A stretch of 64,000 nucleotides of DNA from assembly GCA_040285855.1 (NCBI GenBank), contig JAUFOQ010000004.1:1240001-1304000 (forward strand). Reading direction: 5' to 3'. Below, in pieces: positions 34,301 to 64,000 of this stretch. This DNA is from Eukaryota sp. GEM-RC1 (lineage: Eukaryota). The notes below the pieces were generated by a model. That model worked only from the letters and a program-made list of their open reading frames with translations. It searched no databases and had not been told where the DNA came from. Made by a program: the position numbers and the translations under genes. Numbering within the stretch: the stretch's first letter is position 1; each line of letters begins with the position of its first letter.

Positions 34301-37300
34301 TGACACTATTAGACTGATCTAATTGAAATACAGTGTTAGCAGTTACTTCCGTTATTGATAAATGATTGAGTTTAATAGACGATGAGGAAGAAACAACCAA
34401 ATTATTAACATTCAAGTCATTAAAAATTGAATCGTCAACAATCATTGACGATGATGACAACAAGATTAACGAGTCAGACAAAGATCCGGAAAAAGACAAT
34501 TGTCGACAAAAACTGACGATTTGAGACATTCAAATAGACGAAAAGAATCGATGTCAAACAGACAGTTTGTTGTAGTTAAAGTGGAATTCTGAATTATAAA
34601 CAGACTATCATTAGAGACGGAAAGAACACTCACGAAATCAAAATTGAGTGATGAATCAGAAACCTCAAAAGAACATTATTACCGTATATAATTAAATTAT
34701 GGAAGGTCAAAGAAGACGAAACAATATCAAGTAAAGTCTCATCACTTCCATCAATGATCACGTCACCGAGACCAATAACTTCCCAATCAACATCAATTAA
34801 TTTGCCGAAACCTTGATTGAAGAAATAGTAACCACTATGGAAATAAACCTTCCCTTTTCTTCCCATTCTTTCTAAAACTCCTTTAAAAGAAATACAAGGA
34901 CTGTCAAAAGTACCACAACAAGGGTCATCAATACCAGAAGGAGAAATGTAAGAAACTTGATTTAAGTCGACTACAAAATCATTTACAGAGACAATTAGAG
35001 AAGACTTTGAATAAAAAGTGGATATAAGTGAAGCACAAGGATTAATTATGCTTCTAAATCTTCCATTAATTTGATCAGACTCTATCAGAGTATAATTATA
35101 GCTGGTTGAATCAGACTTTGTATCAAATTCAATTTCTAGTATTCCATCTAAATAAGCAGTTGAACCAACAATTAATTGAGTAAAAGAACTGTCGTTATTG
35201 ATTTGAAGAGAGATGATTGAAGAAGGAAAAAGAGAAAGGTTGTCGTTAAAAGTTAATGTAGATGAAGGATGAGTTCTTCCAAAATTTAAAATATTTGTAT
35301 CAATAGTACCAAATCCCGACATAGTTTGATAGTCAAAGAGAATAAAAAGAAATTCAATCCTAACAGTTGAATCAAAGAGCGCTAATGTTCCATTGAAAGT
35401 GAAAGAAACATTAGAAATGCTTACATCATTTCTCATCAAAACATCAGAATGACAAGCTATTGAACCACTAGAGGTCTGGAATTCTGAAACTGACACGTCA
35501 TCAAGAATCACGCGACTGTAGACATTAATAAAATTAGCCAATTTAACTTGTCCAGAGATCACTGCATTATCAGATGACTCTTGAACGATTAAAGAAGACG
35601 AGAAGTTCCCAGAAGAAATTTGAACTTCAGACGCAATTGCCATGGACCAATTTCCTAGTATTTGACAGTAAAAACAAGAGAAGAATCCAACAATTACTTC
35701 AGTACCCACTGTTGACTCAAAAGTTGAATATGACAAATTTAATCTATGAAAGTTGGAAATATCGTTCAAAAAGTGACTATTGATTGCAACAAAATTTAGT
35801 ACTGGTGACAAGATATCAACTGAGTCGTCATAGTAGAGCTCACTTGAATGAAGAGTAATAGTGGTGGAATCAGACAGAATTCTAGTGCTCTCACTTAAAA
35901 TCATTACAGAATTTCTATAGAGCTCAAGTTCTGTCAAATTCCTAAAAGCTACACCTTTTGATTGAAGGTTTGAGGAAGTTAAAGAGAGTGATCCAATGTA
36001 AAATGAAGCTGCTGCAAACGATACAGCAGAATCCACAAAAGTCAGTTTTCCATTTCCAAATATTCCCTGAGGAAGATCAAAGAGAGCAGTTCAATCTCAT
36101 CTTCTGTTAAAGTCCTGGTATAGAACTGAACAGCACGGATTTTACCTTGAAAATCAGTAACTGATGACGAATGATGAACTCCAGAAAGAGGGAAAAGATC
36201 AGGAGGAGGATCACTAAGGTGGGTACATCTATAGACACCAGAGGGATGTGCATGTCCTATTCTAATTCCATCTGCATAAATCCATGATTTCTGATGATCA
36301 AAGGTAATTACGAGATGAAACCATTTCTTGATAGGGAGCAGTGCATTAGTGTAATGAGAACCCCAATAAGACGTAGTATTTAAAAAGTAAAACTTACAAG
36401 TGCTTCCCATGTTAAATCCAATACCCCCGTCTTCAAAGTACAACCACAAAGAAAACGAAGCGTCTGTCCAGCCTTGAGTCTCAATAAGGTTTGGAACATG
36501 TAAGGTATCACCAGGTTTGATCTCAAAATAACCACCATTTTCATCAGTTTTCCACTCTGGTCCATCAATTTTGATTGCACTAGAATCGTGATTTTCCGAG
36601 TAATCCATAGTACTAGGCGAATAAACCCAGTTGTAGTAAAGAAACAAGTCAGGATCAGAAGAATCAAAGGTACTGCCAATAGTAAAATTAGAAGAAACAA
36701 CAGAGAACTCTGATTGTTCTAGAATTTGGAGAATATTGTGTGACTCAAAAGAGAATTCTGTTTGGAAAAGCGAATGAGAATTCAGAGTAAACAGTCCGTA
36801 ATTTGAGATATCAAAATTAGACCGAAATGAACAATACTCTGATAAAACAAAAGAATTGTAAAATTTCAATTCAGCAGAAGTACAGTCAGAAGAACGAGAC
36901 AAAAAAAGAGAAGACGACGGAGTACACTTGACAATTACTGAATCAAGAATTAATTGAGAATTATTTGAATGTAATGTAAGAGAATTATTAAAAACACCTC
37001 ATCTGTAATTGTCAATGATGCTACTCGTAAAACCTTTTCATCACCATAAAGATTGATGACGTTTACTTTGGCTTTACTTAGAGTCAGGATACCATCAAAC
37101 CAATAGATAACCAAAGCCTCTAAGTAACAGTCACAACTAAAGTCACTATTTGACAAAGAAAGAACATCAATATGAAGCTCTAAAGTAGTTGAAATAAATG
37201 AAGAACTCTCTAACTCAAGATTGGGAAGGAAGAAGTCAGAAGAAAGGAAACGGCCATGGATTTCAATGGTTGAATCTTCTTTAGCAACAGTATTGACCAC

Positions 37301-40252
37301 TCCAAAGAAAGCAGATGAAACAATAAATAAAGTAGAATTATAAGAATAAAGACTGTTTAAACTTAATGTCGACAATGAGTTTACGAGAAATGAAGAGTTT
37401 TCAATAATCATACTTCCATCACCAAATATTTGAGTTAATGATACTAATTGAGTTTGAGACAGCGCTTTAACTTCAATTTCAGAAAGTTTCTCTGAAAAAA
37501 CAGCAACTCTTCTAATTCTACCCTTAAAAAACTGATCAGAAGATGGTACCCAGTCATTACCACTCTTGTAATAGACAGATCCCAAAGGGAAAAAATCAGC
37601 AACCTCATCACAGTCATACTTGCCGTTCACAGAAGCAATCAGAGCTCCATTAATATACATTTGAGCTCCATTATGATCTGTAGTAACAATCAAGGAGATC
37701 CATTGATTTCTTGGAATTGACAGATCTTCAATGGTTACATCACCAAAAGATAACTGATCTCCGATTAATAATCCACAACCAGAAGGATCAGTACTAAATC
37801 CAAATTTACTTGTAGTGTCAGAGTCGAACCAAATTGAAAGCGCAATTGTGGCTGATTCCCAGCCAAATTTACCTGGAATATTTGGAATATTCAGAGTGTC
37901 AGTAAAACTTTCAAATTCGTAATAACCATCAGAATTCCATTGAGTACCAGAAACTTCTAATACATTATTATTATTACCAGAAAGATCATTTCCAGAAGGA
38001 CTATTTGACCAATCATAATATAGAAACAATAGAAGATCTGATCCAAGAGTAGAAGAAGAGGAAATGAATTGAATTTTAGAATTTCGGTCCAAATCAATAT
38101 TTGAATTAATATGAGAAACTACACGAAGTGTCAATGAAGTGTTGACCAATTTAAAATTTCCACCAAAAGTAACATGTACATCAAAATCAGAGCAGAAAGA
38201 CATCTGTGGAACTTCAATTACTCCATTGATAGAAAGTAATAAATCATTAGTAAGATTTAACTCAACGTTAAAACCAAAAGTCATCATTTTACCAATATAT
38301 ATTCTACTTAATTTCAGTTCAGGATTAGAAGAACAAAACACCAACGTGTTTACTTTCAATTCTCCAACACCTTCAATTGTTCCACAATACCAATACAAAG
38401 TTTCAACAAAAACATTAGATTCTAAAGAAAGAGTCGAACATTCCGAAGCGCCAAAACTAATTGAATTGAAGAAAGTTTCCATTGGAGAGCTAATAGACAA
38501 AAGTCCATTTAAATTGAATTCAGACAAGAAAAAGAAAGAATCACTGGACAAATTCAATGACCCAGAAAGAAAAACTGGAAGAGAAATCAGATTAAACTGT
38601 TGAAGACCATTATCATTGACACTTCTCGATAATGAATTATTTTCTTCAAATATCAACACTCCATTATTAGATGACGATTCCATCGAATAAACAACAACGG
38701 GAACTGACTTAAATGCAAAATTTGATCGACTGTAAACGCTAATCCCAGAAACCTTTTTGTCCTCGAAATAAGGAATAATGTCAGGAGTCCATTTATCTTC
38801 ATCTGTATGAGTAATTCTTCCCAGATTATTAGAAAACGAAGTACCCCATGACCACACGTCATTGTTGACGTCAACAGCAACAGAGTGATCCCAACCTGCA
38901 GCTGCAGTTATCACGTTTCCAATGTTTGTTACTGGAACTGGAATAGATGAATTACTGGTACCTCCAGTTCCTAACTGACCCCAGTTATTCCTACCCCAAC
39001 TCCAAAGCTTCTGGTTCACATCAATTCCAAGAGCATGATTTAGAAGGGTGTCAATAAAGATAAATTCAATATGACTAGTAAAATGAGTGAACGGAGGTTG
39101 AGTTTCATCAGTAGTTCCTAATTTTCTACCACACGTAAGAGTAGAACCATCCTCTTTGATGAAAAAAGAAGCAATTCCAGCAGCAATAAATTTAATATTC
39201 TGTAAGTATTCAATTTGAGAAGGCGATTCCATGATGCCACTATTTTCACTACACAAAATACCATTAGACTCACTGCCCCATCCAAAAACTTGCCCATCTC
39301 TAGTTAAAGCAAAAGTAGTAGAATGGCGACCAGCAATCTGTTTAACATTATTTAAATTTGGAATCAACGTGGGAATATTTCTTTCAGTCAAATCTCCTAA
39401 ACCTAACTGCCCATGATCATTACGGCCCCAAGAATAAACCGAACCAGAAATATTCAAAGCAAAACTGGAATGTTGTGAGGACAAAATTTGAATAATGTGC
39501 GATAAATCAATTTTACCATGAATATTTCTTCCATCACCATTGAATCCAAGTTCTCCATAAGTATTACTTCCAGCAGTGTAAACGTCACCATTAATCAAAA
39601 GTATCATAGAATGGATTCTTCCAAGAGAAGCGTGTCTAATAGAATCAGGTAAAGTATAAGATTCAGGCGATATACCATGAGAAGATTCTTGCAAGCCACC
39701 TCCAAGATGTCCTTCGGAATTAAATCCCCAGACATGAAGAAGATCAGAACTTAGTGGAAAATGACTAGTATTGAGGGAAGCGGAAGTAGAATTGACAAGA
39801 ACAAGTTCACTGAACCCATGTAGATCAATTGAACCACGTTTCCAGTCAAAGAGATCAGTGACTATGAGTTTGTGAGAAGAGAAAGTAATGGGGTTAGAAG
39901 CATCCACAAGAAGAGCTTTAACGGAAGAATAAGAGAGAGGAGAAGCATGATCGGAGCTCAAGTTACCTCCTTTGATGATGAGACTATCAGAAACGGTGAG
40001 AGTAGAGCTATCTGTGAAAAGAAGCTCAACATTGGAAGAAAGAGTGAGAGATGATATGGTAACATCAGAATCAAGAGTCACTGTTACAGCGACCGTCTGA
40101 GAAGACAGAATAACAGAAGAAGACAGAGATGGAATCTGAGGACTGTCCCAATTGTTAGTATCTGACCAAAGACCATCCGAAGTAACGTTCCATTGATGAA
40201 CTGAAGCAAAAGAGACGCAGCAGACCACAAGGAAAAGTGATGTGATAATCAT
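28385..40252 (-). CDS. Giant surface-protein paralog C, probably intact (~3,957 aa): signal peptide, RCC1 (~39740-38710), LamG (~38030-37450 and ~36645-36060), beta-solenoid, TIG-like, stalk type 1, galactose-binding-like domain, Cys-rich block, multi-pass TM
   Basis: MIITSLFLVVCCVSFAS signal. Seven consecutive ORFs join by single-base corrections in T runs (about 36990, 36080, 34668, 34490, 33705, 32915 and 28440 short by one; 30850 long by one). Corrected length is 11,874 nt = 3,958 codons, and I found no in-frame stop. Confidence 0.8.
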
Positions 40253-41950
40253 TGATTGGTCAGAGGAAGCTGAATGGTTGACAGTGATTAAGCAACAGGA
40301 TGCAAATTCATGAATGTGATGTCACTCAACACGTGTTTCACTAATGAATGATTATGATTCGTGATACAATCGAAAATGTTGAATATATCTTCAAACACAG
40401 TGTTATTTTTACATGGGAACTGGAAGTCATGTGAAGCAAAATGAGTTGGAGATGATTTATCTGAATGTAGAAAATGACAAGTTTAGAGGAGTTTACAGAT
40501 GACTTGTCTGTTCATACCAATTTCGTACATGGTCCTTTTCAATTGGAACAAGTTGTTAGCAGTGATTCGTAGTATGTGTTTCGTAAATTTTAGTTTATCA
40601 AACGGGTTATACAATCTGGAATTTTTTTGTGTACTCATTAATGACTGTCAAGTTCATTGGTGGAACAATACATTTGACTGTTGTTGGGAACGTACATAAT
40701 AGGATATGGTCTATGGTCAGTGTATCATCGGTCATTCTTGCAATTGTAACTTCAATTCAAAACTGGATATTGCTGTTGTAATTGTAGATGAATGATGTTC
40801 TTAGGAATTAAAAAGTAGCATGGTTATCAACAAGATTTCTTGGTATCCATCATTACTGAATTTGTGTGTTCTACCTGTTTCAATTTACCATCACTGCAAT
40901 AATAAAAATCAATCTCACTAAATTAACTATTTAATAAATTCGAAACATGATGACAAATAGTGTCTTTGTCCTTTCAACTGTGTTCCAATTTTATCGTGAC
41001 ATTCCAAATTACAGTTGGTTGAGTAAAAGCATGTTTGTACACGATCCAAACATCTACCAAATTATGTAGCTTGAATCAGTCACCTATATTCTCTTGCGCA
41101 ACCATAGGTGCAGATTAGGTCATGACAAACTTACACTCTTTCAAATGTTTGACAACATAGTAATAACTTTGATATAAAATCCACAGTCAACGCTACTCAA
41201 CAATACATTGTTGTGTTGGAATCGGTGTCAATTGTATCAATTTGTTTCTAAATTTTGATCTGCCCCAGCCATTTTTCAACCATGGTTGTAATGAATGTAT
41301 AGAATATCAAGACATCATTACATCATGTCAATTGAATAGTTTGTGTGATCTGCCATTGTGTTCAGAAAAATATTTCAACACTCCATCAATTTAATTAAAG
41401 TAAAATATCAAATTGAAGCCCCTCCAATTTCATATTTTATTTTATTTGCCACAAATCACCCCATTCAACATTCACCCTTACACCAAATAAATTATACATT
41501 CAAAAGGGCATTACAGGTGCAAACCCTAAAATGTCATGTCCTATTTTGCACCCCTTGAATTACAGGAAAATTAGTACTGAAACTGTCAATAAACTGAATA
41601 TATCCATATGGTTTTAAATGATCATGAACTCTGACATGTTATTGAACCGTTTAGTGCAACACCGTTTGTTCCAGAAGTCATCTAGATTGGACTATTCATT
41701 AGGGTATATCAATGTATATGCTATTTCTATTTTTAGATCTATTTTATTGTGTCGGATCTCAGTGGTTGTGTTTTACAGGTGTGGATTTCAGTGTCATGTA
41801 CTGTAATTGTTTCAACGAAGCAGCATTCAGTTTAGCTCAACAAATTGGTACAACTCAAATCTCATTTACTACTAGTAGTATTAGTAAATTATTACCCCAT
41901 TGTTCTAAGTTGAAGGATCTCCAACACACCAACCAACTATACCAATACTG

Positions 41951-45837: not shown

Positions 45838-48800
45838 ATGATCGCTATTATTCTGATCCTTTGTTGTTGTGCTTTTGCCTCAGTCCATCATTGGAATGCC
45901 ACTACTGATGGGTTTTGGTCTGATACAAGCAACTGGGACACAGCTGACATACCCTCCCAGTATTCTTCCGTTATTCTTTCACCTCAAACCTTTCCTATAA
46001 CAGTAATTGTTGAATCTGAAGTTCTTGTATCATCTCTTACACTCTCGTCCAATGTTGAGCTTCTTTTCACACACAACTCTAACCTGACTGTTTCTGATAG
46101 CCTCACTATCAACGGGGGCAGCTTGAGTACTCATCTTTCTTCCTCTCTCTCATTTTCTTCTGTTGAATCTCTCGTTATGGCTTCTTCAGAACTTGTTACT
46201 CTCTCTTATCACAAACTGATAGTCACTGGACTCTTTGACTGGAAACGTGGTTCAATTGAGTTGGATGGCTTCAGTGAGCTTATTCTTGTCAATTCTACTT
46301 CTCTCTTTCCTTGATAGTGACTTTTCTCAGGGTCCCAATGATCTTTATGTCTGGGGATTGAACTCCAATGGTCAACTTGGAGGAGACTTGCAAACTTCTT
46401 CTGTTGGTATTTCTCCTGAATCCTATACTCTTCCTGTTTCTATTAGACAAGCTTCTCTTGGAAAATTTCACTCTCTTATACTCTCAACAAGTGGTGACGT
46501 TTACACAGCTGGAAGTAACATTTATGGTCAATTAGGATATAATGGTGAAGGAAGAACTGTACATGACAAAATTGAACTTTCCAATATTATTCAAGTACTC
46601 TCATCTCATAACTCTAGTTTTGCTTTAACTGCTTCTGGTCACGTGTTCTCTTGGGGAGGGAATTTTAATGGAGAATTAGGACTAGGAGATGTGATTGACA
46701 GAAATACTCCCACTTTAATTGGAAATTTAAATAATATTAAGCAAATTGCTGGTCGATATTCTACCACTTTTACTTTGTCTAGAAATGGTCAAGTTTTTGG
46801 ATGGGGAAGTAGTGATTTCAATATTTTATGTAGTCACAATACCATAAATATTATCTCACCCATGTTAATAGATGGTCTTGAAAATGTTAAATTTATTGCT
46901 GCTGGAAGTGCTGCTTTTTTCATTAAAGAGGATGGTTCTACTCTTACTTGTGGTAGATTTCTGAGCACAACCACTTCGCAACCTTCTTTTACCCTATTTG
47001 CTGAGGATATTGAGTTTACCTTCATTGACACTCTTGTCGGTCACGCTCTTGGAATTGATGTGAACCAAAAGCTATGGAGTTGGGGTTGGAATAGTGACGG
47101 TAGACTAGGTGATGGTGGCTCAACCAACTCTCCTACTCCAGTCACAGTAGTAACCATTGGAAAAGTTATTGCTGCAGCTGCAGGATGGGATCATTCTGTG
47201 GCTGTTGACGTCAACAATGACGTGTGGTTTTGGGGTACCGAATCGATACAATTTCGCTTCTTTTCTCCTCAGCCTATTTCTCCTTTACTTGGAAAAGGAA
47301 TCACCCATATACATGCTTATTTCAGGTGTAATGTTGCTTTGGCGCCAGTTCCTCCACGTGTCAATTTCATCACGTCATCGTCTCAGTCTGGGGTGATGAC
47401 TTTGGAAGAAAATAATCAAAACATTGGATCAATTAATGATGAAAGTATTCAACAGTATAATCTTATTTCTATTCCAGTTTTTCTTTCCGGTTCATTGAAT
47501 CTGACCAGCGATTCTTTCTTTTTCTTGTCTGAATTCAATTTAAATGCAATTATGTCAATTAATTCGCCAGTTGAGAATCTTTTCACTTTACTTTTTCTGG
47601 GAGCTTCTGAATGTTCAACTCTTTCTTTAGAATCTAATGTTTTTGTTGAAACTTTGTACTGGTATTGTGGAACAATTGAAGGTGTTGGAGAATTGAAAGT
47701 AAATACGTTGGTGTTTTGTTCTTCTAATCCTGAACTAAAATTAAGTAGAATTTCTATAGGTAAAATTATGATGTCTGAATTAAATGTTGAATTAAAGCTG
47801 ACTAATGATTTAATTTTTTCTGTTAATGGAATAATTGAAATAGCACAGTTGTCTTTCTATTCAGATTTGGATGTTAATTTAACTTTGAGTGGAAATATTA
47901 AATTGGTCAACACTTCATTGAACCTTTGTGTCGATTCTCATATAAATTCAAAGATTCAATTAGACCAGAGTTCTAAAATTCAAATTATTTCATCTTCATC
48001 TACTCTTGGATTTGATCTTTCGTTGTTTCTTTATTATGATTGGTCAGAAAGTTCTTCTGGAAATGATCTTTCTGGTAATAATAATAATGTACTAGAAGTT
48101 TCTGGTGCTCAGTGGAATTCTGATGGTTATTACCAATTTAAAACTTCTACTGACGTTATCAAAATTCCAAATATTCCAGGCAAAATCGGCTGGGAATCAG
48201 CTACAGTTGCATTTTCAATATGGTTTGACACTGACACTACCATTAGATTCGGATTTGGCACTAATCATTCTGGTTGTGGATTAGTTATTGGAGATCATTT
48301 ATCTTTTGGTGATGTAACCATTGAAGATCTGTCGATTCCAAGAAATCAATGGATCTCATTGATTGTTACTACAGATCATAGTGGAGCTCAAATGTATATT
48401 AATGGAGCTCTGAGTGCTTCTGTGAACGGGAAGTATGACTGTGATGAGTTTGCTGATTTCTTCCCTTTGGGATCTGTCTATTACAAGAGTGGTAATGACT
48501 GGGTACCATCGTCTGATCAGTTTTTTAAAGGTAGAATTAGACGAGTTGTTGTTTTTACACAGAAACTTGCTGACATTGAAGTTAAATCACTTTCTGAAAC
48601 ACAATTAGGATCTTTAACTCAATTAATTGGTGATGGAAATTTAGTTATCCAAAACTCTTCTCTTCTTGTAAACTCGTTATCAACTATGGGTTTAAATAGT
48701 CTTTATTCTTTTAATTCTTCGTTATTCATTGTTTATTTGGAGTAGTCAATACTGTCGCTAAAGGAGGTTCAACTATTGAAATCCATGGACGTTTCCTTTC

Positions 48801-51800
48801 TACTGACTTCTTCCTTCCTAATCTTGAGTTAGATTATTCCTCATTTACTTCAACTACTTTGAAACTTCATTTTGATGTTCTTTCTTTGTCAAGTGGTGAC
48901 TTTATTAGTGACAGTTACTTGGAAGCTTCAGTCATTTATTGGTATGCTGGTTCATTATCTTTACATGAAGGCAAAGTAAACGTCATCAATCTTTATGGTG
49001 TCGACAAGGTATTACTGGTAGAATCATTGACAATTACAGATGAGGTGTTTTTAATAATTCTCTTACATTACATTCAAATATTCATCAATTAGATTTTAAT
49101 TCCGTAATTTTGAAGTGTACTCCTTTGTCCTCTCTGTTCTTGTCTTGTTCTACTGACTGTACTTCTATGGAGTTAAATTTTTACAATACTTTTGTTTTGT
49201 CTGAATATTGTTTGTTTCGGACTAATTTTGATATCTCAAACTATGCCTTCTTTACTCTCAATTCAAATTCCTTTTTCCAAACTGAATTCTCTTTTAAGTC
49301 TCATATTATTATACAAGTTCAACAGCAAGCAGAATTCTCTGTTCTTTCTTCTAATTTCACCATCAACAGCACTTTTGATTCCTCTGATCCTGACATGTTT
49401 CTTTACTACAACTGGATTGATTCACCTAGCCCAATTGACTTCTCAGGAAATCACGATTTCAGTGCAATCAAAATTGATGGACCAGTGTGGGAAAGTGATG
49501 AAAATGGTGGTTATTTGAAAATTACGTCAGGTAATACTTTGCATGTCCCAAACCTTCCTGGTACTACTGGCTGGATCCAAGCCACAATTGCGATGTGGCT
49601 GAACATTAATGGAGGGGTATGGGAATCTTAGCAAATGATCATTGTAAATTTTCAATCGAACCTACTCGAATTTGTTGGGGTTCAGCTTGTTCTACAGTAC
49701 ACTTCCCAGCTGGGAATTGGTTTTATTTGGCAATTGTAACAACTTTAGAAGAAAATTTACGCTCGAAAGCTAACATTTATATCAATGGAAAATATATTAA
49801 TACAATTTCATCCAGTGGATACAACTGCCCTTCTCCTCCTTCGTACTTTCCCCTTTCAAGAGTGTATCCTTCAGGTTCATTTTTCCGAGGTATGCTTCGT
49901 GCTGTATTAGTGTTTCGAAGAGTTTTATCAGCTGAAGAGATAAGTGATATTGATTTTAGTTTTCCTGTTAGTGTTGGGGGTCAATGAAAGTTCTCATTTA
50001 TTAATTCTTATTGTGCTCTTTCATCTTTGTACTTTGAAATTCGTTTTTTATCATTAACTTCGTCATTTCTACAATCAAGCAACGGCGGACTTGGGCACCT
50101 TGTAGAACTTGATCTTAGTTCTAATTCAGAGATGGTTTTTGTCCGTAGTCGCGACTTTGATTCTAGTAATCTTACTGTCTTTTTTAGACTCAAGCAAACT
50201 TCGCTATGTAGAGTTTGATTCTGATATCCAGGTTTTTATTGATTCAGTTTATCTAACAAATACTTCTTCTGTAATCACTGATGCTATTCTACATGTAGGC
50301 CATTTTCATTGGCTTGAGGGTGAGTTCTTCCCGCCTGGCAACATATCTTTAAAAATACTTGTCTTGTATGGTGATTCTAAAACTTGGTTTCAGAACTCTT
50401 TAATTATTGAAGAAGAATTGCATTTCAATAATTCTCTTACTTTTTCTATTTCTCGTCTCATTTTAATTACTGTTTCTGTTACTTGTTTTCCTGGTTCAGA
50501 ACTTCTTCTTGATTCACATTCTTTTGATGAAAGTTTACTTGAAGTCAAGATCCATCTTCATCTAACTTCCAATTGTTCTCTCACTTCACTATCACCAGTT
50601 CAAAGTACTGGGATTATTACTCTTACGAATCACTCAGTACTAACTCTTTTGAATGATTTTAGTTCATCAGGTGTACTTGAGATTTATTATGATGGAGAGT
50701 TAGTTCTTAAGAATACTACTATTACGTTTAATGGTTCGCTGTATTTACATGAAGAACTTTTTCTGTACTATAATTGGATTACGTCATCTAATCAAATTGA
50801 TTACTCAATGAATCATGATAACAATACTATCATAATTGATGGACCAGAGTGGAAAACTGACGATATCGGTGGTTATTTAGATATCACACCTGGTAACACT
50901 CTCCATATTCCAAATATTCCTGGAGAATTTGGATGGAGAGATGCTTCAATTCCTCTCTGGATTTACTTTGAAGAAGGAGGAATGGGTTTTTGGGGCCAGA
51001 GTCCTTGTATTTTGTACCTAACAACAAACCTAATTTGGTGGGGTGACTATTATTTGATACATATTAAATTCCCTCTTAAAGAATGGTTTCATCTGGTGAT
51101 CACTTTTGATCAATCAGAAGTTTACTTTACGTTGATGGAGAGTTTTTGTATACATTTCAACCAGATACTCCGTATGGTTGCCCCAACGGACATCGCTCTT
51201 TTTCCCACTTTCAGACATTACAGATGCCCCTCAGAAGTTTCGAGGAAAGATTCGTGCAGTTCAAATTTTCACCAAGACTTTAACAGTATCTGAAATTAAT
51301 CAATTAACAATCGAGCTACCTACATATGTTTGGGGACAAGGAAAAGTTCCTCTATTAAACTCCAACGTTGAGTTCTTATCTTCTAAGTTTTTCATTAGAT
51401 CACTTTCTTTAACTTCTTCAAAACTTCAAGCAAATAACGTTGTTTTTAGAGATTTAGATCAACTCGAGTTGTATATTGAGTCTAGAATGAACTTAAGCCA
51501 AAACGCGAAAATCTATTCTGATCGTCTTTCAATAACGTTAAATTCCAGTAAGCTCTTTTATGATGATTCAGTCAACATTTCCACGTCCATAATTAGTTTG
51601 ATTGCTTTCAAAAGCCATTTTCAGAATGATTTTGAGTTTGATACTATTCAAATTTTGAACTTGTCATTATCAAATTTTCAGTCAACATCTAGTACTGGAA
51701 TAGCTGTTGGCCATTTCTCTTGTGATCATTGTCAGATCCTAGGAAATTCTACTTTGGTGATAGAAACTAATTCTGAGATTAACTCAGGAAATTTCGCATC

Positions 51801-54800
51801 TTCTTTCATTGTTCAAGAATCAGCAGATAATAACTGGATCACTGGTCAAGTTCAATTGGCTAAGTCCATGGATTTCTTCAGTCACGTGATTCTTGATGAC
51901 GTGTCTGTATCAGAATTACAGTCTTCTATTGGATCCATCACTTGTCATTCTGATGTTTTGATGAGAAATGATGTCAGTATTTCCGTTGTTTCTTTTGTTT
52001 TCAATGATACTTTAATTCTTATCGATTCAACTTTTCTACTTGACATGATGCTTGTTATCTATGATTCTCAAACTATCACTGGATTTGGTACTATTGTTAG
52101 TAATTTTTTAAATTTTGGACGGCTTCGTCCTGATTCCATTATTGCATTTGAAGATGTTGTTTTTCTTTCACTTTCATCCATTGTTTCTTTTCAAATCAAT
52201 AATGATAGTTGTTACACCCAATTAGCAGTGAATTCCACTGTTTATTTAGATGGAATTCTAGAAGTAGAATTTGACTCGAATTTTCAATCAACTGATGCTA
52301 ATTTTACACTTATTCGGTCTAATCAAATTATCGGGAAATTTAGTCATATCACCAGTCGATGTGCTTCAGTATTAACTACTTTTTATTCAGATACGTCTCT
52401 TTCTGTTTCTTTAAATGATATTGTACTAGATCTTAATCAAGTTTCTTACATTTCTTCTTCTGGTGTTGATGATCCTTGTTGTGGAACTTTTGACAGTCCT
52501 TGTGCTTCTTTTAAAGGAGTTTTAGAAAGAATGGGAAGAAAAGGAAAGGTTTATTTTCATAGTGGTTACTCTTTCTTCAATCAAGGGTTCGGCAAATTAT
52601 TTGATGTTAATTGGGAAGTTACTGGTCTCGGTGACGTGATCATTGATGGAATCGATCTCGTCTTTCTTGATGCGGTTTCATCTTCTTTGACCATCCAAAA
52701 CTTAAAGTTTTACGGTAATAATGTTCTTTTGAAATTTGTAATTCATCAATCAATTTTGATTTTATGAACTTTCGTTCTGTCTCCAATGATAACCTGTTTC
52801 TAATGGAAAATTCCATTTTTCGCTTCACAAACTGTTTGCTTGATATTGATTCTCTTCGCCTATTTGAAGGTCTCAAATCTTCCATTGTTGTTGACAATTC
52901 TAGTTTTTCCGGATCTTTGTCTGACTCATTAATCTTGTTATCATCATCGTCATTGCTTGTTGACAATTCACTTTTTACCTACTTGAATACTAGTAATTTG
53001 GTTTATTCTTCTTTTACTTCTATTGAGTTCAGTCATTCGTCAATAATGGAAGTTACTGCTAACTCGGTATTTCATTTAGATCAATCTGATATCGTCTTGA
53101 GTGATTTAAATATTACTTCAGTTTCTTCAAAAGAATTTGTTTGCGGTAACTTATCAACTATTTTTCTGAGTTTGATCGAAATTGATCAATCAATTTCTAA
53201 TGTGTGGTTCAGTTTAATCAATTGTATATTCCACTTAAATAATTTGAATTTCTCTAGTACTCACGGTGATGCTTTCAGTGTTGTAAATTCAACGGACTTC
53301 TTTTTATCTATGGTTTTGGTTGTTAATCCAAACTTATCTGTCTTCCTTAACGCCTTAAATTCAGAATTGTCCATTTATCTTCTTTCTCTTTTCAACTGCA
53401 CAGGAAGTATACTAGAACATTCTGTCAATAGCTCAATTACCACACATAATTTGACCGTTACTGACTCACTATTTGATACTTTGTTTTTGTTATCAGATTC
53501 GTCCTTGAGTTTATCTTTGGGTAACATTGGTTCATCGTCGTTTAATAATAGTACACTTGTGCTTTATAACTCTACCCTGGAGGTGGAAGAGGTTACCATT
53601 GATTTGGTTTCAACTTCTATTTTATTAGAGTCAATGGAAAGTACTAGTACTTTTGAGAATGTTATTATACGTAATTATGATTTTCTCCAGTTTTTGGTAT
53701 TAACCAGATCTAAAGCGAGTTTCTACTCTCTGTCTATGGATCGTTGTCAACTTTTTGAATTAGATTATTCAATTTACGACATTATTTTAATTGAATCTTT
53801 TATAACACTGGAAAAATCTTATCTTTCGGGATGTGTTTCTAATGAACAATTTAAATTGAGTTTATATTCAGAACAATCTTTTCTCCATTTACTTGCTTTT
53901 GACCAGGAATTCTTCTTTTCTTCAATAGTTTTGGACCATTCCAATATTACTATAATGTCACATGTTTCAGTAATTTCAAAGTCTGTTTCCATTGATGAAG
54001 AATCTATTATCCTTGGGAATGCTCCATTACTAGATCTTTCGTTTTTAATTTCAAATATTTCAATTTCTCCTTCGCAACACTGTTGTAACACGTCTATCTG
54101 TCAGGTTTCTCTGAATTTCAATAATATAGGATATATTTCAGAGTTACTGGAACTTGCAGTTCCTAATAATGATGAATTCTACCACAACTTCTTATTGAAC
54201 TCTCTTGACTTTTTTTTTAACCGACATTATTACTTTCAATCCAATGAATAATTCAATTTATTTTAATTTAGGTTTTTCCAGAATATTTTCTTTTCATCAC
54301 CTATTCGTTCCTATGTGTCCTATTGAGTTTGTTAGTCTAGAACCTCCAACTAGAGGTGGATATGTACCACTGTTTGCTTTTAATCTTGGATTAGATCCTA
54401 TTGTTATTCATCATTCAACTGCATGGGTCAATCAAAGTCTCGAATATTCTTCAAGTAATCATGAAAATTTAAATATTTTATTTTTTGAGGGTCATGGGTG
54501 TCATGAAATGGTCATATCTAGATCAACTGATACGGAGACGTTGTTCTTTCTTTACTGTTTTAAACAACCTATCATTCATTCTGTAACTCCAAATCCTTTC
54601 CCTTTAACCGGATCACTGATTTTAAAAGGATCAGATTTCTCCACAGATTTTGAATTTTTCTCTTTACTTTCAACTTTTCCACAAACAGTTGTTTCTAATT
54701 ACACTCATGATGAAATAATCTTGTATATCCCTTATATTTGCGACATCACTTCGGCCACATTTGAAGTATTTCTAGTAATTGGAAATCAGTCTACTAATAT

Positions 54801-57800
54801 TTTCCAACTTGTTTTTGGACCACCCAGAGTTACTTATTACCCTATTCCTCTTTCGCCTTCTGGTAAAACGATTTTTCTTTATGATACCAATTTTTCCAAA
54901 ATGTTCAACTGTTTCGACAATTCATCAATTGAATTTTCTGTTGACACGTCCTCTTTTGAAGTTATATCTGATCATCAAATAAAGGTTATAACTGGTTCAC
55001 TATATGGATCTACTGAGTTTGTAATCGCTTTCCAATATTTCAAAGATTTCAATTTTTTAATTTCTATACCGGTGACGTCATTTGTCGCTAGAGATACTGT
55101 GTTTATTTGTTTCGTAGGCTTTGCTTGTGAACTTGAAGTATACAATTATTTGGAGTCCTTTTCGTTTCTTGAAACTTTCATTGAACCTAATGTACCTGAT
55201 AGTATTTACTTTCTTTATTTTGGTTCAACCGAATCATCTGCTTCTGTTACATTTATTTCTTATGTACCTGGAATACCACAAGATCTAAAAATTTGCTCCA
55301 AACTTGGATGTTTTTCTATTTTTAACTTACCGTTTGTCGTTCAACCGGCTTATTTATCTCCAAAGCATGTCCAATGGTTAAATGAACCTATAACTACTGA
55401 AGTTCTTGTTGAAGTTGAGGGTATTTCATTTTACAGTTTCTCTGTGATTCAAAACAGTTTTCATTTTGACAATTGCTCATCTATACTTTCTGGTTTCTCT
55501 GAATCTTCCCTAATTTTTGATGTTGAGTTTTCTAGTATGGGAAATTGTACTTTAATAGGAACATCATTTTTAGATATTTTACCTTTAAGCCTTTCAGTTG
55601 AAGCCAAGAATTTTCTTATTTTTCCCCCAGAAGTTAGTTTTAATTCACGCATTGAGTTTACTCTTGTTGAAGATATTAAACATCTTTTTATAACCGTTGG
55701 GAGTCAAGCTGTACCTGTTAACAATGGGGCAAATATTTTAAATTTACAAGATGCTTCTACATTTATCACTCTTCACAGATTCTCTCAGTCAATGAACATC
55801 AGTGTTGTTACCTCTATGTTTTACTCAGAAATTCCTGAGGTAATTGAGCTCAATAATTCTCAGTCAAGCCTGATTGATTTAAGAAATATACTTTATCGTT
55901 TAAATGTACGTTGTCTTGGTTTCTGTGATTTACACTCGAAGTATATACATGAATCAGTTCCAATTATCTCTTTTACTGGATTTGAGTCCGAAACAATTAC
56001 TTTGGAGTTTATTATTCTTTATCTTAATTCCAATTTCAACTTTCGAATTCCTATAGTAGTAGAAAATCCTCCAGTGTTTGAACTTATAAGTCCAAATGTT
56101 GTCACAACATCTGAAGATTCTCTTCTAGAAATTTTGAGTTTCTCACATTTTGTCATAACAGGATATTTTTTGATTGATGATTCTGTTATTGAACCTACTA
56201 ATGTTGAGCTCATCTCCAGTTCTGATTCCTTCTTTGTTTACAGATTTGATCTGAATCTTACTTCCATGTCAGTGTTTGACGGTGAATATGCCCTAGATCT
56301 TTGTTGGTCTCAGATAGGATTCAGAAGACAGCTTGTTTCAGAAATTAAATTCTTCAATTTGGAATTCAGCAGTAACGATCACGTCAGTGTTTTTGAACAT
56401 CGTGATATTTCTGTTGACTTCAAAGGAAATATTACTTCAAACGTGACTTGTTCTATTGATGACCAAACCTTCTTCGGACAAGTCGTTGATCACGTGCTGG
56501 TTTGCAAGAGTGTCCGAATTCCAACTTTTCAGCAACACGTGTCTGTTGACATTTACTATGATTACTTTCTTTTGAATTCTTTTGAACTTTATGGTGAGGC
56601 TTTTTTGGAGGAGATATGCTTCAGCTCATTTACACATCACCCTGTGGTAAATTCTTTTGAGATTAATTCAAATATGAAAACAAATTTAATATTTGATGGT
56701 TCAAGATGTTGTAGTGTTGATGTTTCTTATTGTTCAGAATTCTTTTACATTACCGAAATGGTTTCTTTTTTCTTTGAATCTAATTATGACATTCATCACA
56801 TCATAATCACGTCTAATTCTAGTTGTCAGGGCATTGACTCTGGTTTTCCTTTTGCGCTGATTGTCAACAATCAATCTCTTTCCACTTCCGTTTCTTGTAA
56901 ACAAATTCCTAGTGGTTATTCATTTGCATCAATGTGTGAAATAGATTTAATCTTAGCAAATACTTCTGAAATTACTCTACTACCTTTAGATGACGTTTTT
57001 TTACTAGAAGTAGAGTTTTATGGTTACAAATCTAATTCTTGTTTTAAACCTTTTCATTGGTAAAAGGAGTAACTTCTCTAGGACAAATAATTGACGAAGT
57101 TATTCATTTGCGATTTAATAATCAATCATATTATTCAATTTCAGAATTCAAACAATTTGTGGTTGATAAGACAACTTTCTGGTCATCATCATCTCTATCT
57201 TTTCCCACTGAGTTATATTCTTCTTATTGTTATTATTCTATTGTTAGTCATCCAACTGTTTTTACTGCGTCGTCAGCAGTATTTGTGATCTTTCTAGCTG
57301 ATGTTGTAGAACTAAATCCTCAATATTTGAATATTTCAATTCCGATATTGTGTGTCGATCCTTTGAATTTCGTTGTTGACTGTGGTGATATGTTTACAGT
57401 AATGACTTCAACATTTGAATACTTGAAATTTGATGTCATTTCCAATTCATTGATTTTCTTTTTATCGAATATGATCAATCTTGGGGAACATTCGTTCTTA
57501 ATTACTTACAATCAAAGTCAGTTTTATTGGAATGTGAATGTTATTCAAAATTTTAATGAAATATTTGAAGTTGGTCATTTTAAAACTACTAGATGTGATC
57601 ATCACTATACCTCTGATAATGCATGTACTTTATTGGACTTCTCATCTAAATTGATAATTCAAAATCAATTTTCTAATTATTCGAAAGCCATTATGTTTTC
57701 AGATTTAAGTATTGCTCTTGAAGTTGCGTCTTCAGTTTTACATGTCGTTAATGAATCCACGTTGCAGATTATTGGACCTCCACGTCAGTCAATGACGATT

Positions 57801-59024
57801 ACAATTTCCTATTTATCGCATTCTGCTACTAGCAATCTGGTATCCAATGATTGTCACTTTCCTAAATTGAATTCTGGACATGGATGTTTATGTTCAAAAG
57901 GAATGGAATTTAATTCTCTTGGTGAATGTGTGGAATGTTCGCTAAATTATTATTCAAATTCAGAATTTAATTCAGAATGCAGATTTTGTTCTTTTCCTAG
58001 AATCACTCTTCAAAAAGGTTCTAGTGATCTTGACCAATGTGTTTGTCCTTTAAACACTCTAGATTCTGTAGATCATTGTTTACCTTGTCCTCATTTAGCT
58101 GAATGTGGATATGGAAATTTGACTGGAATTGAACCTGCTTTTAGATTAAATACTGATACTTGGGAACTAAATGAGTGTGTGTTTTGGTATAGTTGTCACC
58201 AGAATTCCTGCAGATCACGTCATGCTTATGGAGATTTGTGTCAATATTGTACTGAAGATGCTGTTTCTAGTCGAATTTACTGTATCGGAAAAGAACATTT
58301 ATTTTTTAAAATTCTTCTATTCATGTTTTTTGTTGTAGTTCTGTTTGTTGCAGATGTGCTCCTCATTGTCTTTCTTCAATCAAAAGTATTGTCACGTGCT
58401 TTGCGATTGTCCATCTCTTCTTTATCGTTTTTCCGATCATCTCAAATTTTGAAGCATCATTTAAATTATTCAAATATTTTGAATGTCTTTCTTTTCTCAG
58501 TTTCAGTCTTCAGTTACAAAAGAGTTTCCTTCAGTTTAATTTTTCTTGAGTATGTTTCATCTCTGTTTTATTTAGATAAGTCAATGATATTGTTACCTTT
58601 AATTGTGTGCTCTCTGTCGTTTTCTTCAAGATTTTGCTTAACAGAATATTTTAAGTTCAAAACTTTTAATATTTTCCATAGTTCCTTCTTTACTGGAGCT
58701 GCCTTTATTTCACTAAATTATGTTTTTGGAATGACTTTGTCTCATTTCTTTAGTCAACAATTGCCATTTCTATTATTTATTTTTGTTTTTATTCATATTA
58801 TTTTTGTTTTTTATGTCATATATGCTCAACGAACACTCCCTTATATCTTTTCACTTGTTGCTTATTGTGTCATAATCTTTGCAGAGTTGCTGCCCAGTTT
58901 AATTTATTTCATTGTTCAAACAGTTTCATTGATTTGTCTTTACTGTGTTTCTACTTCTTTTGAACGAGTTGTTCTTGGAATTAGTTCTTTAGTTTGTGTA
59001 CATAATTTCATGGTGTATGTTTGA
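45838..59024 (+). pseudogene. Giant surface-protein paralog D, full length (~4,390 codons) with three LamG domains (~48025-48610, ~49397-49985, ~50757-51340), stalk type 2 and a divergent TM type 2
   Basis: MIAIILILCCCAFAS signal, collinear with B and C. Many homopolymer frameshifts, a ~10-nt deletion near 48735, and in-frame TGA 49985-49987 (GGA in B). Confidence 0.85.
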
Positions 59025-60548: not shown

Positions 60549-63500
60549 ATGGTCGTGGTCTTTCTTCTCCTTTGCTGTTATACTTATGCCTCAAATTGTC
60601 GATGGAATGTCACGACTGATGGATTTTGGTTTGACAGTAACAACTGGGATCGAGGTATCGTTCCCTCTCAACATTCTTTCGCTATTCTCCCACCTCAAAC
60701 CGTTCTTTTAACAGCATTTGTTGAATTCAAAGTTGATATAACGTCTCTCGCTCTGTCCTCCAATGTTGAGCTTTTTTTCACCGATAACTCTACCCTAACC
60801 GTGTCTGATAGCCTTGTCATGAATGGGGGTAGCTTAAGCACCGATACATCGTCTCCTCTCTCTTTTTCTTCTGTTAAATCTCTCATTGTGGATTCTGTTG
60901 ATCCTATTACTTTCTCTTCTCACAAACTCATAGTCTGCATGATTGAGTCATTCCACTGCTGTTGACGTTAATAATGACGTGTGGTCTTGGGGTAATCATT
61001 TCGACGGTGCTCTAGGTAGAACTACTACCTCTCCTAATGAAAGATTCATTCCAGGTCGTATTACTCATTTGGAGAACAAAGAAATTAGTGGTATCAATGC
61101 ATATTATAGGTCTAATTTTGCTTATAGTTCACAGTCTAGTGAGAAGGAAAATTTTCACTTATCAATTCAGAAGTACAGTTATATTCCTCGAAGTTCGACG
61201 TTAGAACAATTTCTCTAACATACTCGACTCTTTATTTAAATGACGTCTATTTTAACAATTTAAAATTCTTCGAATTATTGGCTAATTCATCAGTAAATGT
61301 AACTAGTGACTCCAAAATTGCTTCTGATGATCTAACTATCACCTTAAATTCAAGTGATCTCTACTATGATGATTCAGTCGACATATCGTCATCAAGTGTC
61401 AGTTTGATTGCTATCAACAGTCGTTTCCAGAATGATTTTGACTTTGATAATATCCGTGTTTTAGATTTATCCTTTTCAACTTTTGAGTCAGCTTCAAGTA
61501 TTCATATCATTGTTGGGTACTTCTCTTGTTTTCATTGTCAACTACTTGGAAACTCTTCGTTGTTGACAGAAACATATTCTGAGATTAATTCAGGGAATTT
61601 CTCATCTTCATTAGTTGTTACACAATCAGCAGATACTAATACGCTCATTGGTCAAGTTCAATTGGCGAATTCTATTGATTTCTTCAGTTACGTGATTCTT
61701 GATGACGTGTCAGTTTCAGAATTCCAGTCTTCGATTGGGTCCATCATTTGTCATTCTGATGTTTTGATGAGAAATGTTGTAGCTATTTCCAGTATTCCGT
61801 TCGTTTTCCACAATGCATTGATTTTATCTGATGCAACTGTCTTTCTTGATCCGCTCTTTGTTCTCTTAGATTTTCAAACTTTGAAAGGCGTTGGTACTAT
61901 TGATACTAATATTTTAAATTTTGGAAGAATTAATCCTTCTTCTACATTAACTTTTAATGACAATCTTACTCTTTCCTTTTCGTCCATAGTAACTCTTCAG
62001 ATCAGTAACGACAGTTCTTCTACTCAATTAATTGTTGGTTCAACTGCTTATTTAGATGGAATACTAGAAATTGAATTTGACACAAAGTCTGACTCAACCA
62101 GGTATAATTATACTCTGATAGAGTCTGATCAAATTAATGGAAGATTTAGAAGCATAATTAATCCTTGTGCTTCACTTATAACCACCTTTTATTCAAAGTC
62201 TTCTCTAATTGTCTCTGTAAATGATTTTGTAGTCGACTTACAACAAGGTTCTTACGTTTCACCTACTGGAGTTGATGATCCTTGTTGTGGAACTTTTGAC
62301 AGTCCTTGTGCTTCTTTTAGAGGAGTTTTAGAAAGAATGGGAAGAAAAGGGACGGTGTATTTCCATAGTGGTCACTATTTGTTTAATCAAGGTTTCGGCA
62401 AATTAATTGATGTTGATTGGGAAGTTATTGGTCTCGTTGACGTCATCATTGATGGAAGTGATGAGACTATACTTGACATTATTTATTCTTCTTTGACCTT
62501 TCATAATTTAATTATCTACGGCAAAAATGTAGTTTTTGAGGTTTCTGATTCATCAATCATTTTTGATTTCGTGAGTGTTCTTTCCGTCTCTAATGATACC
62601 ATGTTTTTAATTGAAAATTCCTCTTTAACTACAACAAACTGTCTGTTTGACATCGATTCTTTTCGTCTATTTGAATGTATTGAATCTTTACTTTTCATCA
62701 ACAATTCTAGTTTTTCCGGATCATTGTCTGACTCGTTAATCTCGTTGTCATCATCGTCAATGATTTTTGACAATACACTTTTTAATGACTTGAATGTTAA
62801 TAATTTGGTTGTTTCTTCCTCTTCGTCTATTAAACTCAATCATTTATCAATAACGGAAGTAACTGCTAACACTGTATTTCAATTACATCAGTCTATTATT
62901 CTCATGAATAATTTAATTGTTTTTTCAATCTTTTCAAAAGACTTTTGTTTATAGTACGTTCTCAATTATTTCTCTAAATACTCTCAAAGTGGATCAATCA
63001 ATTTCTACTGTGTGGTTCAGTTTAATCAATTGTAAATTCCACTTACAAAATTTGAATTTCTCAAGTATTCACGGTGATGCTTTTAGTGTCTTAAATTCGA
63101 CGGACTCCTCTTTATCTATGGTTTTGGTTGTGAATTCGAACTTGTCCATCTTTCTCAACGTTTTAAATTCAGGATTGTCCATCAACTCTCTTTCTCTTTT
63201 CAACTGTATAGGAAGTATACTAGAATCTTGTGTTAATAGTTCAATTACCACACAGAATTTGGCCATTACTGATTCATTATTTGATACTTTGTTTTTGTTA
63301 TCAGACTCGTCCTTGAGTTTATCTTTGGGTAACATTGGGTCATCGTCGTTTAATAATAGTACACTTGTGCTTTATAACTCTACCCTGGACATGGAAGAAG
63401 TTACCATTGATTTGGTTTCAACTTCTATTTTCTTAGAGTCTATAGAAAGTAATAGTACTTTTAAGAATATTGTATTACGTCGTTATGAGTTTCTCCAGTT

Positions 63501-64000
63501 TTTGGTTCTAACTCTGTCCAAAACTAATTTTTTTCTCTATTCATGGATCGTTGCCAACTGTCTGAATTAGATTTTTCAGTATATGATATTTTTTTAATTG
63601 ACTCGTATCTAACTCTGGAAAAATCTAATATTTCTGGATGTGTTTCTAACCAAGACTTTAAGTTGAGTTTATATTCAGAAAAATCTTACCTGTATTTTCA
63701 TAAGTTTGATCAGGAATTCTACTTTTCTTCATTGGTTTTAGATCATTCCAATGTCTCAATAATGTCATATTCCCCAGTAATTTCTAAGTCTGTTTTAATT
63801 GATGAAGAATCTATTATAATTGGTAATGCTCCATTACTAGATCTTTCCAGATTAATTTCGAATATTTCGATTTTTCCTTCACAACACTGCTGCAACACGT
63901 CTATTTGTCAAGTTTCTCTGAATTTTGATAATATCGAGTATCTTTCAGAGTTACTAGAACTCTCAATCCTTAATAATTTTCTTATTTTTCCACCAGAGGT
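60549..64000 (+). pseudogene. Giant surface-protein paralog E, internally deleted, running off the window
   Basis: MVVVFLLLCCYTYAS signal. Jumps at ~60935 (skips most of RCC1), ~61138 (skips all LamG domains) and ~63976 (skips the TIG-like region), plus homopolymer frameshifts near 62935 and 63530. Confidence 0.85.

Follow-up and report, generated by a model that had tools for sequence, protein, structure and literature searches.

Several modular multigene families of surface proteins in protists and fungi change by unequal crossing-over and gene conversion. Examples are the trans-sialidase-like proteins of trypanosomes, with their ConA-like lectin domain, BspA and Pmp of Trichomonas and the adhesins of Candida. 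Here we analyze a stretch of 64,000 nucleotides from Eukaryota sp. GEM-RC1 (contig JAUFOQ010000004.1, positions 1,240,001 to 1,304,000 of the forward strand), called the window below and used for all coordinates, which holds five paralogs (A–E, Table 1) of one giant predicted surface protein gene. The full copies B, C and D differ in their laminin G-like (LamG) domains, and an earlier sequence-only reading had taken these for discrete cassettes of two variable types, 'a' and 'b', that are gained, lost and exchanged at fixed edges and adaptively alter glycan specificity. Our results point to a different history, in which the LamG differences between B, C and D probably go back to deletion, unequal recombination and segmental gene conversion in a tandem array of LamG domains and all-beta spacers, within a large lineage-specific family of giant proteins. 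According to the main text of its genome paper the organism, published as Skoliomonas sp. GEMRC, is a metamonad from a soda lake, free-living and anaerobic, and Nanopore R9.4 reads (119x reported Nanopore coverage), corrected with Illumina data, underlie its genome assembly (PMC11316075). The window DNA is nuclear; the D gene model (959 aa) is 100% identical to the hypothetical protein GEMRC1_008182, as is the 840-aa frame of D at 46223–48742.

A full copy begins with a hydrophobic, signal-like N-terminus and continues with an RCC1 propeller, a first LamG domain (LamG-1), further LamG domains separated by spacers of ~230–250 aa, a long all-beta region rich in S, T, N and L, a Cys-rich, ephrin-receptor-like region (PF07699 in Pfam) and a C-terminal end with one strong and several weaker hydrophobic segments. 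The RCC1-like propeller (PF25390/PF00415) passes the gathering cut-off of 150 for PF25390 in all three full copies, at 172.7 bits (D), 169.9 (B) and 201.5 (C). All motifs and sequence strings quoted in the sequence-only reading could be located in the DNA where it had placed them, and the pattern it described is there: B has LamG-1 and 'a', C has LamG-1 and one further LamG, and D has LamG-1, 'a' and 'b'. LamG-1 is indeed conserved (81–83% identity among B, C and D), and the other LamG cores vary inside a much better conserved scaffold, with ~35–49% identity for the core of C against 77–85% for its flanks. LamG 'a' of B (B_a) reads GWTGTTISLWMNIQAGG and the second LamG of C GWTDASFSLWLYFEDGG. 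The start and exit motifs that had been proposed as cassette borders are generally present, with two departures: B_a opens with LFMYYNW, and the exit of LamG 'a' of D (D_a) reads VGGQ*K, with TGA in D where B has GGA. The other exits are GVWGQGK in B_a, YVWGQGK in LamG 'b' of D (D_b), GIFGNGK in C and IFGDG or LIGDG in LamG-1. Every LamG other than LamG-1, here called class 2 as opposed to class 1, has a similar 'GELVLKNSTITF...' tail upstream and xWGxGK downstream. After the string VQSTGIIT, B continues with ...VSNDSIMTLKKAWEHNQGEFLGLGELRL and D goes into a LamG. In tblastn searches B_a against the D_a region gave E 1.5e-129 and the family protein P0011 (GEMRC1_009360) against D_b gave E 3.3e-73, and the LamG similarities are thus due to homology rather than to chance.

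The LamG/ConA-like fold assumed for these domains was confirmed, as Pfam, an AlphaFold model and fold searches agree on a jelly-roll beta-sandwich. Five of the seven LamG domains in the window exceed the gathering cut-off of PF13385 (Laminin_G_3, 27.6 bits), D_a doing so with its C-terminal fragment (39.1 bits, E 1.1e-09); the exceptions are B_a and D_b, neither of whose two fragments matches Pfam at E<=0.01. D_b is 64–67% identical to P0011, and the precomputed annotation of this protein includes PF13385. The model of B_a, built from a 17-row alignment, is all-beta with 15 strands (predicted local distance difference test, pLDDT, 79.4; predicted template modelling score, pTM, 0.80). Foldseek found 241 PDB matches to it at E<=0.001 with lectin-like jelly rolls at the top, among them the carbohydrate-binding domain 4 of the GH43 protein AbnA (5hon_A, E 8.5e-07, TMq 0.61), the lectin or CBM40 domains of trypanosome and Vibrio sialidases, pentraxin and the lectin-like subdomain of clostridial neurotoxins. 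VIA gave Z 13.5–9.3 for CBM40, pentraxin and the LG domains of laminin, agrin and perlecan, with Z 13 over 160–170 aligned residues. Along the domain, residues 76–199 vary more than residues 1–75 (mean column entropy 1.82 against 1.24).

Together with its spacer the LamG domain forms a tandem unit. LamG-1 with spacer1 aligns to a class-2 LamG with spacer2 at 25–29% identity over 360–412 columns, 1372 and 1362 nt separate successive LamG starts in D, and those in other paralogs are spaced by 413–479 aa with one exception of 358 aa. The unit thus measures ~415–480 aa, and up to four are found consecutively in other paralogs. A search of 1.84 billion representative proteins with the LamG profile gave 13,891 matches at E<=0.001. 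Among the best 30 of these, 27 are family proteins of 180–2,564 aa in which the unit is matched in 1–5 stretches, and the non-family rows P0030, P0032 and P0033 are metagenomic proteins of 3,368–6,910 aa. All 22 named close matches belong to GEM-RC1, and 16 of them are encoded on the window's own contig of 2,818,101 bp. Using a custom hidden Markov model and landmark motifs we mapped the domains in 21 family proteins, none of which has more than one class-1 LamG. Four consecutive class-2 units were found in P0012, which is without RCC1 and LamG-1, three in P0013, two in P0014, P0015, P0017 and P0018, one and a partial unit in P0016 and P0020, one in nine proteins and none in four truncated models. 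Five of the nine single-unit proteins are short forms with the LamG right after the N-terminal domain or heading a truncated model. As the gene models end at frame breaks or skip them, all these numbers are minimum counts. Catalogued over this larger set of paralogs, the number of whole LamG and spacer units varies, and their period is regular.

Two side observations concern the same proteins. In P0013 (GEMRC1_009047, 2,564 aa) a short form, consisting of N-terminal domain, LamG and post-LamG region, is fused at residues ~1100–1200 to a long form, in which ~15 residues between '...STSLNINYDYDSS' and 'SITGLGSIEL' take the place of LamG-1, either by genuine loss or as an annotation artefact. In the short-form paralogs a class-2 LamG directly follows the N-terminal (Amnionless-like) domain.

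For the spacer a two-part model of P0011 (pLDDT 70) predicts an all-beta structure with alternating long and short strands, and VIA relates it with Z 9.4–10.4 to beta-solenoid adhesins and tailspikes over the model residues 3–402 that flank the LamG. The model fits LamG domains that would project from a solenoid-like stalk.

The proposal of two swappable types did not survive a wider sampling of domains. Among ten domains compared pairwise, B_a and D_a are 58% identical and C, D_b and P0011 share 49–64% with each other, while 'a' against 'b' reaches 42–48% and either of them against LamG-1 28–36%. In a tree built from 42 LamG domains of the family (11 class-1 and 31 class-2 rows, with a bootstrap that is not fully settled) class 1 and class 2 are each recovered with 100/100, and class 2 is a poorly resolved radiation. 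LamG 'a' is a clade of two members on a long stem (100/100), private to B and D with no other member among the 31 class-2 domains. The former 'b' forms a clade in only 6% of the bootstrap trees, and its motif is close to the class-2 consensus. The class-2 LamG of C clusters with P0025 and P0038 (100/99); P0025 has the context seen in C, namely spacer1, LamG and then 'FDLPQGIFGNGK', and P0038 shares the downstream context as far as the gene models reach. The lineage of a LamG goes with the sub-lineage of its gene and with its position, as expected under vertical descent, and the domains do not behave as two interchangeable types. A recent 'a'/'b' hybrid, formed by unequal crossover in a D-like gene, was considered for the LamG of C and rejected, because its 3' part has only ~50–60% nucleotide identity to D_a and D_b and because it belongs to its own clade with P0025 and P0038.

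The places at which the copies part from each other were located with blastn. D 45851–50648 is collinear with B 6863–11699, and both resume at D 51838 and B 12240. B is shorter by 649 nt, falling within D 50649–51328, and keeps ~31 nt instead, its protein reading ...VQSTGIITVSNDSIMTL-KKAWEHNQGE-FLGLGELRL at the junction. What B lacks are the last 35 residues of spacer2 and all of LamG 'b' up to the exit motif, the 5' edge of the gap being located 35 aa upstream of LFLYYNW. Its 3' edge is at the GxGK exit motif, and so is the restart of E. D and C are collinear up to D 49575 and C 36467, which is ~180 nt inside the LamG, and resume at 51388 and 36003. D is longer than C by ~1200 nt from the blastn diagonals or by 1361 nt from MAFFT; as the global MAFFT alignment had set the C LamG against 'a' with one 1361-nt gap, we used the blastn diagonals and the domain tree there instead. 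E derives from the long form by two deletions. It is without ~4.9 kb, all LamGs included, and consists of the N-terminal domain (60562–60935), a remnant of the last RCC1 blade (~60960–61135, 'AVDVNNDVWSWG...') in a frame other than its flanks, and the post-LamG region from 61143, restarting after the gap at 'EGKFSLINS', the exit motif. Cassette boundaries at domain edges, as they had been postulated, are thus seen at the 3' edges in B and E but neither at the 5' edge in B nor at the break between C and D, with only three full DNA copies to compare.

Exchange between the copies is also not confined to the LamG part, as mosaic ancestry spans the whole 13-kb gene. When the B/C/D alignment is divided into windows of 450 columns, the numbers of sites joining BC against D, BD against C and CD against B differ from one to the next (chi2 1205, 54 degrees of freedom, p 9e-217), for example with 84:16:25 for BC against D at D 46276, 146 of 197 sites for BD against C at D 55199 and 183 of 215 for BC against D at D 58343. 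The Nei–Gojobori synonymous divergence (dS) of a single pair spans 0.09 to >2 along the gene. Site patterns and dS range both indicate recombination or gene conversion between the copies, acting gene-wide instead of on the LamGs specifically. The ratio of nonsynonymous to synonymous divergence (dN/dS) is 0.17–0.65 in all scored windows, LamG 'a' included. B_a against D_a resembles the RCC1 region with dS 0.75–0.88, and its pairwise, window-averaged dN/dS of 0.24–0.41 gives no sign of diversifying selection. The block D 47583–49372, which comprises LamG-1 and spacer1, has a low dS of 0.09–0.65 in all three pairs. Since synonymous divergence is low there too, the constancy of LamG-1 is at least partly due to recent homogenisation, beyond stronger constraint alone. 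Nucleotide identity of C to D_a is 77–85% up to ~+150 nt into the LamG and ~50% beyond, which suggests that the homogenised block also covers the next LamG over its first ~180 nt.

Outside the LamG part, the hydrophobic C-terminal region of D (58343–59021) is of another lineage than those of B (18739–19426) and C (29074–28396), with 34–36% aa identity to B and C and a dS of ~2, as compared to 84% identity between B and C, and over ~32200–29970 C is unlike both B and D. Judged from these segments, the family has several alternative segment types, in the LamG part and beyond it.

All copies are interrupted. We counted 7 frame breaks in B, 6 in C and 10 frameshifts and one TGA in D, and 7 of the 11 lesions in D are located within 48.7–51.2 kb, the 'a'/'b' region, so that the only copy in the window with both 'a' and 'b' is disrupted. 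In D_a a GGGG run is one base short at 49617–49618 and an in-frame TGA (49986–49988) falls in the exit motif, and in C a frameshift at ~36092 is close to the end of the class-2 LamG; the sequence-only reading passed over these lesions and the two frameshifts in D_b. About half of the 1-nt indels relative to the paralogs lie in T or G runs. D further has a 2-nt deletion at ~46301 and a 10-nt deletion at ~48731 that is not found in the 99% identical paralog P0002. P0022 (GEMRC1_008288), 98.5% identical to D, has the out-of-frame peptide after ~51122 as well. The T-run shift at ~49047 is common to D, P0002 and C, while B, P0004 and P0025 read through; it could be an inherited lesion, a converted lesion or a systematic error. 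For the many 1-nt homopolymer shifts of B and C, Nanopore errors left after correction are a possible source. Such errors are unlikely for the 10-nt and 2-nt deletions, the change of GGA to TGA and the shared shift at ~51122 in D. Copy D, at least in its 'a'/'b' region, is probably a decaying gene. Between the breaks the homologous frames are open for 125–1200 codons in DNA of 33% GC, and this together with the dN/dS values implies that any inactivation is recent.

Other causes of the frame changes were examined and rejected. Short introns do not account for them at the sites examined: at 49617 there are only 2 extra or 1 missing base between the frames, the single possible GT..AG intron there, 15 nt long, leaves the frame unchanged and yields a non-LamG reading, and most breaks are 1-nt indels relative to the paralogs. 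An alternative genetic code (table 4, TGA = W) leaves the broken frames unhealed. The coding strand is strongly T-rich, with an AT skew on the + strand of ~-0.2 over the + strand genes and of +0.2 over the - strand gene; this follows from a protein composition rich in F, L, S, I and N and leads to many T runs, in which most of the 1-nt frame breaks are located. Among the public gene models, P0001 jumps from '...FDWK' to 'LSLFLSILL...' over the 2-nt deletion at ~46301 (window 45838–46319), and the P0022 model, from a near-identical locus, skips the whole LamG 'a' as if it were an intron (window 49158–51215). Because public models bridge frame breaks with apparent introns in this way, domain counts based on the proteome are unreliable.

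Taken together, the family would evolve by duplication, unequal recombination between LamG and spacer units, internal deletion and segmental gene conversion. In B, LamG 'b' and the end of spacer2 were probably lost, and loss in B is favoured over gain in D, in a comparison that is not rooted, because spacer2 of B lacks the tail found in front of all other class-2 LamGs. C would be a member of a sub-lineage with a single class-2 unit, and the first ~180 nt of its class-2 LamG would belong, with LamG-1 and spacer1, to one block in which gene conversion has probably made B, C and D alike. At the protein level, the ConA-like domains would be set out along a stalk resembling a beta-solenoid, and the proteins are predicted to be surface-exposed lectin-like adhesins or receptors that bind carbohydrate or other surface ligands.

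Several points weigh against this explanation. In an unrooted comparison of three full DNA copies, D-like genes could instead have gained a unit, with no loss in B and C. The 31-nt filler of B aligns only loosely to LamG 'b' and may be no remnant of it. Rates that changed in particular segments, instead of recombination, could account for part of the shift in site patterns, although dS shifts too, and Nei–Gojobori dS values above ~1 are saturated. Since the P0001 and P0022 models bridge breaks, the module counts taken from proteins are minimum values and perhaps distorted. In the P0011 model the N-terminal tail has a pLDDT <50, which makes a LamG excursion from a continuous solenoid a weak proposition, and surface location and ligand binding are deduced from sequence features alone. 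Should the frame breaks for the most part be assembly errors, D would be less decayed than it looks; should they mostly be genuine, the genes would be dead, and 'surface lectin' would apply only to what they once encoded.

The cassette model of the sequence-only reading can draw on the variable LamG cores within a conserved scaffold, on whole units differing in number between paralogs, on the shared tail before and xWGxGK after the class-2 LamGs, on the exit motif at which the gap in B ends and E restarts, and on a fold that is that of carbohydrate-binding modules. We nevertheless consider it very unlikely in its full form, as 'b' is no clade and 'a' is restricted to B and D, the LamG lineages follow gene sub-lineage and context (C with P0025 and P0038, B_a with D_a) in a way that fits vertical descent, the gap in B starts 35 aa before the motif and the C/D break lies inside a domain. 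Moreover, dN/dS in 'a' is low, mosaicism is gene-wide, and the copy with both 'a' and 'b' is broken, as is its near-identical twin.

A reading of the window copies as dead relics, with LamG differences that are random pseudogene deletions devoid of functional meaning, appears unlikely as a whole, even though every copy is interrupted, E combines two large deletions with a frame mismatch, D has lesions outside homopolymers (the 10-nt and 2-nt deletions and the nonsense codon) and one lesion is common to D and its 98.5% identical copy. Against it stand the long open stretches in the correct frames, dN/dS values that place any inactivation in the recent past, and gene models of 1,500–2,560 aa with 2–4 LamG units in other paralogs; many breaks may also be errors, with T or G runs holding about half of the 1-nt indels in a Nanopore R9.4 and Illumina assembly, as its main text describes it (PMC11316075). 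Tandem repeat collapse or expansion during assembly would be a further source of differing module numbers, and 48% of the genome is reported as repetitive in Table 1 of the genome paper (PMC11316075) and near-identical twin copies are present. We regard such an artefact as hardly conceivable, since the units within a gene ('a' against 'b' 42–48%, either against LamG-1 28–36% protein identity) are far too diverged to collapse, the junction flanks are unique and collinear and Nanopore coverage is reported as 119x. Hence we prefer the explanation by deletion, unequal recombination and segmental gene conversion.

Table 1: Paralogs, LamG domains, spacers and the B junction in the window.
Feature	Position	Strand	Remarks
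Paralog A	2..5796	+	C-terminal part only inside window
Paralog B	6854..19426	+	8 frame segments
B LamG-1	9059..9673	+	PF13385 E 1.3e-11, 45.3 bits
B LamG 'a'	10441..11037	+	intact; PF13385 27.2 bits, slightly below 27.6 cut-off
B junction	11699..11730	+	spacer2 tail and whole LamG 'b' missing; ~31 nt filler (KKAWEHNQGE)
Paralog C	28396..40321	-	7 frame segments
C LamG-1	37415..38029	-	PF13385 E 2.1e-10, 41.3 bits
C class-2 LamG ('b' of the sequence-only reading)	36050..36647	-	directly after spacer1; PF13385 E 2.9e-11, 44.2 bits
Paralog D	45838..59021	+	12 successive frame segments; 10 frameshifts and 1 TGA
D LamG-1 (class 1)	48023..48637	+	intact; starts LFLYYDW; PF13385 E 1.5e-09, 38.6 bits
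D spacer1 (all-beta)	48638..49394	+	10-nt deletion ~48731; T-run frameshift ~49047
D LamG 'a' (class 2)	49395..49990	+	starts MFLYYNW ... GWIQATIAMWLNINGG; split by frameshift and TGA
D spacer2	49991..50756	+	homologous to spacer1; T-run frameshift ~50180
D LamG 'b' (class 2)	50757..51345	+	starts LFLYYNW ... GWRDASIPLWIYFEEGG; frameshifts ~51122, ~51193
Paralog E	60562..63998	+	extends past window end; all LamG modules missing

The open reading frames (ORFs) of the window are long and arranged in same-strand runs with successive ones in different frames, and no tRNA genes were found in the window. The paralogs are interspersed with unrelated genes. One of them, at 21670–25697, encodes TmcB-type TPR repeats (PF25474, E 3.4e-20); the second ORF that follows it is in another frame with a 33-nt overlap (24786–24819), which may be a frame break or an intron. 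Within 41909–43719 there is a gene with LRR_6 (RNI-like) repeats (LRR_6 ORF 42205–43719, E 1.1e-45), preceded by an ORF in another frame that overlaps it at 42205–42418. The N-terminal domain of the family itself gives a sub-threshold Pfam match to Amnionless (E 7e-06 and 1e-04; 25.5 and 21.6 bits, cut-off 30.4), and the Amnionless-like stretches are 45838–46000, 40252–40100 on the - strand and 60550–60700. For the C-terminal part an ESM Atlas look-up returned only ephrin-receptor-like protist clusters with scores <=0.90, which we treat as a lead only.

Our literature searches found no published description of the family, and none of the terms RCC1, lectin and expansion occurs in the main text of the genome paper (PMC11316075). 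As far as these searches go, the family is undescribed in print, yet its evolution is of the ordinary kind for modular multigene families and involves no new mechanism. It makes up a large part of one chromosome-scale contig in a recently sequenced, deep-branching metamonad and shows how tandem units of lectin domain and spacer, gene conversion and decay shape giant genes in a free-living protist. If the proteins are expressed surface lectins, they are candidates for the recognition of prey or substrate. On the practical side, a public gene model that skips a whole LamG domain is a warning for anyone counting domains in this proteome. It could also be imagined, as a speculation that we think is distinctly unlikely to hold in full, that in this free-living, anaerobic feeder on bacteria giant surface proteins form an arsenal on the scale of a chromosome. 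They would have 0 to 4+ fast-diverging, lectin-like LamG modules carried by a beta-solenoid stalk; unequal recombination and segmental gene conversion would continually reshuffle these modules, broken copies would act as sequence reservoirs, and the whole would be a parasite-like variant-receptor system directed at prey or substrate glycans and not at immune evasion.

With known Laminin_G_3/ConA-like jelly rolls the domains share the PF13385 match, the all-beta sandwich, Foldseek E values of 1e-6 to 1e-7 and VIA Z scores of 10–13.5 over 140–170 residues. They differ from them in having only 8–20% identity to any solved structure and in being embedded repeatedly in the all-beta spacer of a giant protist protein. 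The likeness to the HCN subdomains of clostridial neurotoxins is that of a generic lectin-like fold only. The predicted all-beta spacer resembles, in its alternating strands and with VIA Z 9.4–10.4, the beta-solenoid adhesins and tailspikes represented by L. reuteri SRRP, H. pylori VacA p55, phage CBA120 TSP4 and the A-domain of C. glabrata Awp1, although such Z scores are middling for repeats and the low-confidence N-terminal tail sets the model apart. Giant prokaryotic and metagenomic LamG-repeat proteins, such as 'MAG: LamG domain-containing protein [Elusimicrobiota bacterium]' (P0044) and others of 3,000–7,800 aa with up to 20 matched stretches, likewise carry many tandem LamG_3 domains (LamG profile E 1e-25 to 1e-63). 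However, they match only the profile positions ~50–290, mostly ~100–230 in the LamG domain, and are without the spacer and scaffold of the family; they are related to it at the domain-family level only. The trypanosome, Trichomonas and Candida families offer a parallel in evolutionary behaviour: like these, the GEM-RC1 family is a lineage-specific expansion, here clustered on one chromosome-scale contig, with mosaic paralogs, a variable number of tandem modules and many interrupted copies, and the fold matches of B_a include lectin domains of trypanosome sialidases. In contrast to them, GEM-RC1 is a free-living bacterivore and no parasite, and its proteins combine an RCC1 propeller, LamG units, an ephrin-receptor-like region and several hydrophobic segments in an architecture of their own.

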